Below, one piece after another: positions 1 to 773 of a stretch of DNA of 773 bases. This DNA is from Escherichia coli (GTDB lineage: Bacteria > Pseudomonadota > Gammaproteobacteria > Enterobacterales > Enterobacteriaceae). The position numbers were made by a program, and so were the translations under genes. The notes below the pieces were generated by a model. It was not told the DNA's origin, made no database searches, and saw only the letters and a list, made by a program, of their open reading frames with translations. The stretch lies in NCBI RefSeq assembly GCF_003334405.1, contig NZ_QOWM01000052.1; one strand, given 5' to 3'. Position 1 is the stretch's first letter, and every line of letters starts with the position of its first letter.

Positions 1-773
1 GCCAGCGGCAGGCCGCGATGGTCGCAGTGGTACAGGTGGATTTTTCGCGCCGGCGTGTACACCGGGTCCATCTGGTTTTGCATCTGCTCCACGGTCAGGC
101 CGCACGATGCCAGCCAGCGGCGGCTTTCCTCACTCACCCGGTCAGCCAGGATTTCACTTTCCAGCCGGTCGAGCATCTGCACCAGCACCGGCGGGAACAC
201 CACACTGCCACCGTCTTCGCCGCCGGACTGCTGAAGGGTATCCGCCAGGCTGCGGCGCTGCGTTTTCGCCAGCTCACCGGTGGCGGTTTCAACCCTGATG
301 AGTGGCGTGAAGCTCCCCGGCTGATAAATCGTCTGGATGCGGGTTCTGTCGTTCTGTATCGTGGTCAGGCGGTCGCCGTCCCAGCCGTACCAGGTCACTT
401 GCGGTTTCCGTGACAGCGACATCCAGCCCGTCAGGTCCCGTTCACGCCGCCACACCCGTTTTGCCACCCTGCGGCCCAGCGGGTCGTAAAGATAGCGACT
501 TTCGACCAGCGGCTCTTCATATTGTGTCCGCGTGTAGTGCACCAGCCGGTGCTGACTGTCGTAATGGTACCGGTGAGTCCGCTCATCATCCGTGCGGATA
601 ACCCCTTCCGGGATGAGGTCGGTTTTCTCTGTCAGCCTGCCGTGACGGTCATACCGGTAAAGATAGTGCGCGTCACGGGCGATACGGTTATCCGGCCACA
701 TGCTGAGGGTGCTGTCCGGGTGCAGCTCCGGGTCGGGCAGGCGGTTACCTGCCGGGTCTGTGGCATACGGGAT
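1..773 (-). CDS. rhs: Rhs-family (YD-repeat) polymorphic toxin core protein, internal fragment; partial at both ends (N-terminal side beyond position 773, C-terminal side beyond position 1)
   Basis: Seen in sequence: the reverse-complement frame starting at position 773 (codon 1 = 773..771) runs 257 codons to position 3 with no stop, plus a 2-nt partial codon at 2..1. Hand translation: [258 protein letters not shown]. It contains canonical YD repeats ([42 protein letters not shown]) at roughly 25-38 residue spacing. Established knowledge, recalled not searched: this matches the C-terminal third of enterobacterial Rhs core proteins (E. coli RhsA/B/C-like). GC is about 63% by hand count, as expected for Rhs cores. 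The gene symbol is generic because core paralogs are near-identical and the distinguishing tip is outside the window. Confidence 0.93.

Follow-up and report, generated by a model that had tools for sequence, protein, structure and literature searches.

The 773-nucleotide stretch of Escherichia coli DNA analyzed here, referred to as the window, is by sequence comparison an internal piece of an already known, multi-copy clade-I rhs gene of the rhsA/B/C type. The five YD motifs on its minus strand are almost certainly genuine YD-repeat hairpins of the Rhs shell, to judge from sequence conservation and a predicted model, with the return strand of motif 1 reduced to a vestige. Rhs elements of E. 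coli have been under study for decades, the YD repeats were first defined on E. coli Rhs proteins, and several Rhs cocoons have now been solved. The YD-repeat reading of the window is thus correct and ordinary, in that it recovers a known E. coli Rhs core. Its value is mainly one of calibration, as an initial annotation made from the letters alone had the family, strand, frame, and position in the protein right.

To place the window in its gene, we relied on comparison with complete genomes. A megablast search of 5426 complete E. coli genomes found the window in 3885 of them, at 17,528 places (1 to 10 per genome, with a median of 5), only two of which are plasmid-borne. This copy number and distribution fit rhs cores as dispersed recombination targets. 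Among the matches listed, all lie under genes annotated as RHS element core protein, rhsA, rhsB, or rhsC. The best DNA identity, 99.9%, is to a coding sequence at positions 3307..7440 of the locus L001, from which the window differs by one synonymous base. The window (1..773, minus strand) is an internal fragment of this gene, open at both ends; its translation corresponds to residues 899–1155 of the 1377-residue RHS element core protein encoded there, with no amino acid differences. This best-matching copy, whose product we call the host protein, sits at the classical rhsA position, yibF–rhs–yibA. Against the equivalog profile NF041261 (RHS_core), the window scores 557 bits over profile positions 913–1169 of 1261 (E 7e-167), as expected for a fragment that spans about 20% of the profile. 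The full host protein scores 2647 bits over positions 1–1261, where the curated cutoff is 2000.

The coding signal within the window agrees with this assignment. Frame 0 of the minus strand, read from base 773 downward, runs through 257 codons without a stop, and its GC content at the three codon positions (0.66/0.46/0.77) is the signature of a GC-rich coding frame; the window as a whole is 62.9% GC. At the DNA level, a repeat search of the window gave no direct repeats and just two weak inverted pairs (71% and 83%); it is in the protein alone that the repeats can be seen. No RNA family in Rfam was matched on either strand of the window.

The host protein carries several further domains and motifs. 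A DUF6531 N-terminal plug at residues 46–123 is followed by ten significant units of PF05593 (RHS_repeat) at residues 360–712, by PF03527 (“RHS”) at residues 1143–1179, and by TIGR03696 (Rhs_assc_core), above cutoff, at residues 1170–1247. An aspartyl-protease motif, DPIG-x18-DPLG, occupies residues 1221–1246, the core boundary PVTNTDPLGL (of the PxxxxDPxGL type) residues 1238–1247, and an Ntox34 toxin tip (PF15606) residues 1298–1372. Over L001 3200–7600, GC content is 0.59–0.64 (about 0.62) in the rhs core and 0.37 in the toxin tip. The tip and the downstream genes are 35–39% GC, and the fall comes just past the core boundary. Jackson et al. 2009 (PMC2935791) gave a GC-rich core with an AT-rich tip as the classical composition of Rhs elements.

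The best-matching gene is followed by yibA (HEAT repeat), a putative immunity-type gene. Beyond yibA are two orphan rhs C-terminal fragments, at L001 8333–9289 and 9796–10014, both annotated as “missing N-terminus”. An immunity-type gene comes after each of them, yibG (sel1 repeat) in one case and an Imm57 gene with a frameshift in the other. Orphan C-terminal fragments with immunity genes are the displaced-tip arrangement of rhs loci.

It is improbable that the source of the window itself is an rhs fragment, truncated or orphaned (a displaced core end with its tip, or a pseudogene), in which case the motifs would be real and the remnant perhaps unexpressed. By themselves, 773 bases are compatible with a full-length expressed copy as well as with a truncated one. 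Orphan fragments do lie directly downstream of the best-matching gene (L001 8333–9289 and 9796–10014), several matches carry only the label “RHS repeat-associated core domain-containing protein”, and one matching record (H27) contains just 27% of the window. However, all 257 codons of the window frame are intact, and at least 80% of the window is present in 3875 of the 3886 matching records. Moreover, the core-like GC of the orphan at L001 8333–9289 extends for no more than about 400 bases, which is too short for the window.

The five motif peptides were found on the minus strand exactly where the initial annotation had put them. Motif 2 (630..659) matches the consensus YDxxGRL(I/T) exactly, as YDRHGRLT. 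Motifs 3 (540..572) and 4 (465..497) carry one substitution each, and motif 3 has His in place of the turn Gly. Motif 5 (363..392) has a turn one residue shorter than the consensus, and motif 1 (738..767, residues 901–910) has T for Y, as well as GNRL. A loose YD regular expression gave four matches in the real translation and at most one in any of 20,000 residue shuffles. Conserved columns in 34 homologues with at most 50% identity read, from motif 1 to motif 5, DpAGNRL, yrYD..GNl, YD..hrL, Y.YDalGRR, and yGWDGDRL, and distant relatives show motif 1 as a regular YxYDPAGNRL. The homologues used for this view of protein conservation reach down to 35% identity.

To score the motifs one at a time, we used a position-specific scoring matrix (PSSM) trained on the 20 YD repeats of the host protein that lie outside the window, with a position-by-position scan and shuffle controls. 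A custom HMM of the same outside repeats, run with hmmsearch, had returned only three domains. Domain definition is unreliable for 17-residue units, and this is why the PSSM scan took the place of HMMER. Motif 2 scored 17.9 bits (window-wise p <0.0005), motif 3 scored 14.2 bits (p 0.001), and motif 4 scored 7.3 bits (p 0.04). Motif 5 reached 8.0 bits only when a one-residue deletion in the turn was allowed (p 0.08), and motif 1, at −12.6 bits, was not detected. Motifs 1 and 5 are consequently supported by conservation and by the predicted model, not by sequence score.

The curated repeat profiles gave a divided answer to the repeat scan that had been proposed as a check. TIGR01643 scored the window at 25.9 bits, against a cutoff of 15.8, over two stretches, the better of which is window residues 61–83 (motif 3). 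PF05593 stayed below threshold: it placed no significant unit on the five motifs and gave two sub-threshold partial matches, at motifs 2 and 3 (i-E 0.05–0.7), the weak match at motif 2 covering window residues 38–52. Both profiles (PF05593 with 38 positions; TIGR01643, “YD_repeat_2x”, with 42) model two motifs about 21 residues apart. We have for this reason set aside the failure of PF05593 as an argument against YD repeats. The apparent reason for the sub-threshold scores is spacing. The initial annotation had given a spacing of about 25–38 residues and regarded it as that expected of the shell. The numbers hold, as the Asp-to-Asp distances are 36, 30, 25, and 35 residues, but they are not the canonical shell spacing, which is 19–24 residues (median 21) in the host protein as compared with 25–36 for the window motifs. 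The motifs had also been described as degenerating towards the C-terminus, and this is not what we see. The N-terminal motif 1 is the weakest of the five, and YD-type hairpins continue downstream of the window in the plug region (AEYDEWGNLL, QYDEESGLYY, and RYYDPLQGRY), the first of them a good YD hairpin.

For the structural placement of the motifs, 64 sequences were chosen from the best 150 relatives in a representative search, giving a 65-sequence alignment with the query. The AlphaFold2 model built from this alignment for residues 48–1247 has a mean pLDDT of 88.8 and a pTM of 0.82, and so the hairpin mapping that follows is that of a predicted, not a solved, structure. By DSSP, a common pattern is seen in 18 of the 20 canonical repeats that lie outside the window, namely six strand residues up to the Tyr (only five in two of these repeats), a five-residue DxxGR turn, and a further strand. 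Motifs 2–4 are predicted to have an identical pattern. The motif 2 hairpin (residues 935–950; 618..665, minus) is canonical, with strand YLYRY, turn DRHGR, and strand LTEKTD (DSSP EEEEE-----EEEEEE). The motif 3 hairpin (residues 963–982; 522..581, minus) consists of strand RTHRYHY, turn DSQHR, and strand LVHYTRTQ (DSSP EEEEEE-----EEEE). In the motif 4 hairpin (residues 985–1010; 438..515, minus), strands of 10–11 residues flank DPLGR (model residues 938–947 and 953–963). The motif 5 hairpin (residues 1023–1038; 354..401, minus) joins strand QVTWYGWD to strand RLTTIQ through a tight two-residue GD turn (DSSP EEEEEEE--EEEEEE). This short turn matches the deletion of one residue that the PSSM scan detected, and the motif aligns to FGWDGDR in Tse5 of Pseudomonas aeruginosa.

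Motif 1 (738..767, minus) appears in the model as a degenerate YD unit, with a five-residue DPAGN turn and a return strand consisting of a single bridge residue (DSSP EEE--E-----E---). After it comes an irregular stretch of about 25 residues (residues 910–934; 666..740, minus), a loop that lacks regular secondary structure and has a pLDDT of 77–86. This loop carries W..NRI, which is conserved in homologues with at most 50% identity and aligns to RWAGNRV in Tse5. Taken together, the model bears out the suggestion that the YD motifs are beta-hairpin units of the Rhs/YD shell, with motifs 2–5 predicted to form regular hairpins and motif 1 to form a YD-type turn. In the solved structure of Tse5, the turn is formed by DxxGR, with the Tyr directed into the cavity (PMC10684867), which agrees with our model. 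The same arrangement is described for Salmonella bongori Rhs, where a strand gives way to a sharp turn at the YD motif (bioRxiv 10.1101/2024.02.26.582050).

The window had further been proposed to cover the last repeats before the shell closes. As to position this was right, since the window ends 15 residues before TIGR03696. The motifs themselves, however, do not contribute the final hairpins before the shell closes. About 100 non-YD residues, including a helical insert of 69 residues, separate motif 5 from the plug-proximal PF03527 region. The first part of this stretch is a non-YD shell hairpin (residues 1042–1062; 282..344, minus) with strands at residues 1042–1048 and 1055–1062, and few stretches are as well conserved in distant homologues as its hTvYePgSFvPLlR. 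After the insert, residues 1141–1155 (3..47, minus) form strand RKIHLYHC, then turn DHRGL and the first part of another strand, a segment that opens PF03527 and leads into the C-terminal plug. PF03527 model positions 1–13 correspond to window residues 245–257 (3..39, minus), the last 13 of the window. G1152 and P1154 in this segment are among only three nearly invariant columns of the 65-sequence alignment. The C-terminal plug of Tse5 comprises residues 1092–1168 (PMC10684867), from which it follows by alignment that TIGR03696 corresponds to the C-terminal plug.

The model could be superposed on solved Rhs cocoons, on teneurins, and on TcB–TcC, in line with the initial annotation, which had proposed threading as a check. 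In a Foldseek search of the PDB, the top match was Tse5 (8cp6; E 7e-96, TM 0.80/0.88), followed by 7q97, 8qja, 8uy4, 8qjb-d, 7pq5, and 8h8a/b (E 1e-51 to 1e-74), then by teneurins at about 1e-38 and TcdB2–TccC3 at about 1e-34. Searching the PDB with a sequence profile gave the same hierarchy of Rhs structures, teneurins, and TcB–TcC. Compared with RhsA, RhsB, and RhsC of E. coli (clade I, NF041261), nothing of substance differs: the DNA is 99.9% identical and the protein identical over the window, and the GC-rich core, YD repeats, PxxxxDPxGL boundary, AT-rich tip, and downstream immunity-type gene are the same. Tse5 has the same fold at 31% identity. Its alignment with window residues 24–164 (E 9e-14) takes in the WxxNR loop and motifs 2–5, and it shares the DPxG-x18/19-DPxG plug with the E. 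coli host protein. The two differ in their toxins, which are pore-forming in Tse5 and Ntox34 in the best-matching E. coli copy. The remaining solved Rhs proteins, at 19–25% identity to the host protein, are beta-hairpin cocoons with N- and C-terminal plugs as here; they are RhsA of Pseudomonas protegens (7q97), Rhs1 of Photorhabdus laumondii (7pq5), Rhs of S. bongori (8qjb-d), VgrG-Rhs of A. mimigardefordensis (8qja), Tse15 of A. baumannii (8uy4), and RhsP of V. parahaemolyticus (8h8a/b).

The YD shells of Tc-toxin TcB/TcC and of teneurins, the families that the initial annotation had named for comparison, are homologous to this one, and the C-terminal region of TcC can be aligned with the plug-proximal part. 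TcdB2–TccC3, YenC2, and teneurins are indeed within reach of profile and fold searches. Nevertheless, it is exceedingly unlikely that the window encodes the YD shell of a TcB/TcC pair or a teneurin-like protein instead of a type VI secretion system (T6SS)-type Rhs effector. The fold matches to these families are far weaker (E about 1e-34 to 1e-38, TM 0.3–0.5, as compared with E 7e-96 and TM 0.80 for Tse5), with the TM to TcdB2–TccC3 no higher than 0.54, and the window DNA is 99.9% identical to E. coli rhs. Tc toxins have a two-protein shell with a beta-propeller gate, whereas the host protein is a single chain of 1377 residues that includes a DUF6531 plug, and Pfam and NCBIfam scans of it found no beta-propeller domain such as that of TcB. 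Teneurins have a eukaryotic ectodomain and an external C-terminal domain, unlike the host protein, in which Pfam scans found no EGF, NHL, or FN-plug domain and matched TEN_YD-shell only at an i-E of 0.081. A T6SS-type Rhs protein is thus the better description than either family.

There is practically no chance that the motifs are accidental matches in a GC-rich open frame and that the real gene is instead the ATG-started plus-strand open reading frame of 131 residues (18..413), which does exist, given that GC by codon position makes it the mirror frame of the rhs coding frame, that the E-value of the minus frame against RHS_core is 7e-167, that the YD motif count beats all 20,000 shuffles, and that rhs genes underlie every annotated feature at the matches of the window. 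This open reading frame was rejected as a candidate; it is very likely not a gene and would be a mirror-frame artefact of a GC3-rich gene, antisense to rhs.

The window almost certainly encodes the last stretch of the Rhs beta-cocoon wall. Each YD motif is predicted to end a beta-strand with an aromatic residue, or a substitute for one, and to pass through a tight DxxGR turn into the next antiparallel strand. Successive hairpins would then join side by side, and the sheet that they form would spiral round to close the shell. If the homologous T6SS Rhs effectors of solved structure are a guide, the shell would enclose the C-terminal toxin (Ntox34 in the best-matching copy), and the aspartyl-protease plug (DPIG-x18-DPLG) just downstream of the window may both close the shell and cleave the toxin off. 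While gene identity, motif conservation, predicted hairpin placement, and predicted fold match come from the results above, it is by analogy with tested and structurally solved relatives that we infer toxin encapsulation, autoproteolysis, and T6SS delivery. For delivery in particular, the sole PAAR match of the host N-terminus is weak (PAAR_motif, i-E 0.27, residues 3–20), and no vgrG or other T6SS gene lies beside the best-matching copy (no vgrG within 6 kb), so a route through a T6SS can only be put forward conditionally. The N-terminus itself (L001 3307–3450, residues 1–48) begins MSGKPAARQGDMTQYGG. The expected N-terminal cleavage site of the host protein reads PVNPLLGA, as compared with the published PVxxxxGE.

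The one feature of the window that solved structures do not cover is the helical insert (residues 1063–1131; 75..281, minus), a set of five predicted helices between two shell strands that varies between lineages. The helices appear in both models (pLDDT 70–95), and the insert modelled alone has a pLDDT of 86.5. Measured from strand to strand with linkers, this site spans about 78 residues in E. coli Rhs and 4–40 in the solved Rhs structures: about 32 in Tse5, about 40 in Tse15, about 5 in 7q97, and residues 1312–1315 in S. bongori. The insert has no match in Pfam, its predicted fold has none in the PDB by Foldseek (best E 0.19), and a literature search found no described helical insertion in E. 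coli Rhs. The insert could be a functional module specific to clade-I Rhs of E. coli and Enterobacteriaceae, for example one that serves in docking or gating when the toxin is released or a partner bound, rather than a neutral loop expansion. We regard this as unlikely overall, though it draws on the confident prediction, a kept amphipathic pattern, the absence of the insert from solved Rhs structures, and the absence of a non-Rhs fold match. If the insert were to open the shell or bind a partner, this would be relevant to how Rhs toxins escape from the cocoon. Among the matches listed for its fold in AFDB50, all are E. coli/Shigella-type Rhs, two of them bearing other organism labels. In most relatives, the insert is 70–119 residues long, and in a few distant ones 9–17. 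Across relatives, its amphipathic pattern is kept as SLAE.LQQ...LE.EL....S.ES..WL.QCGL.
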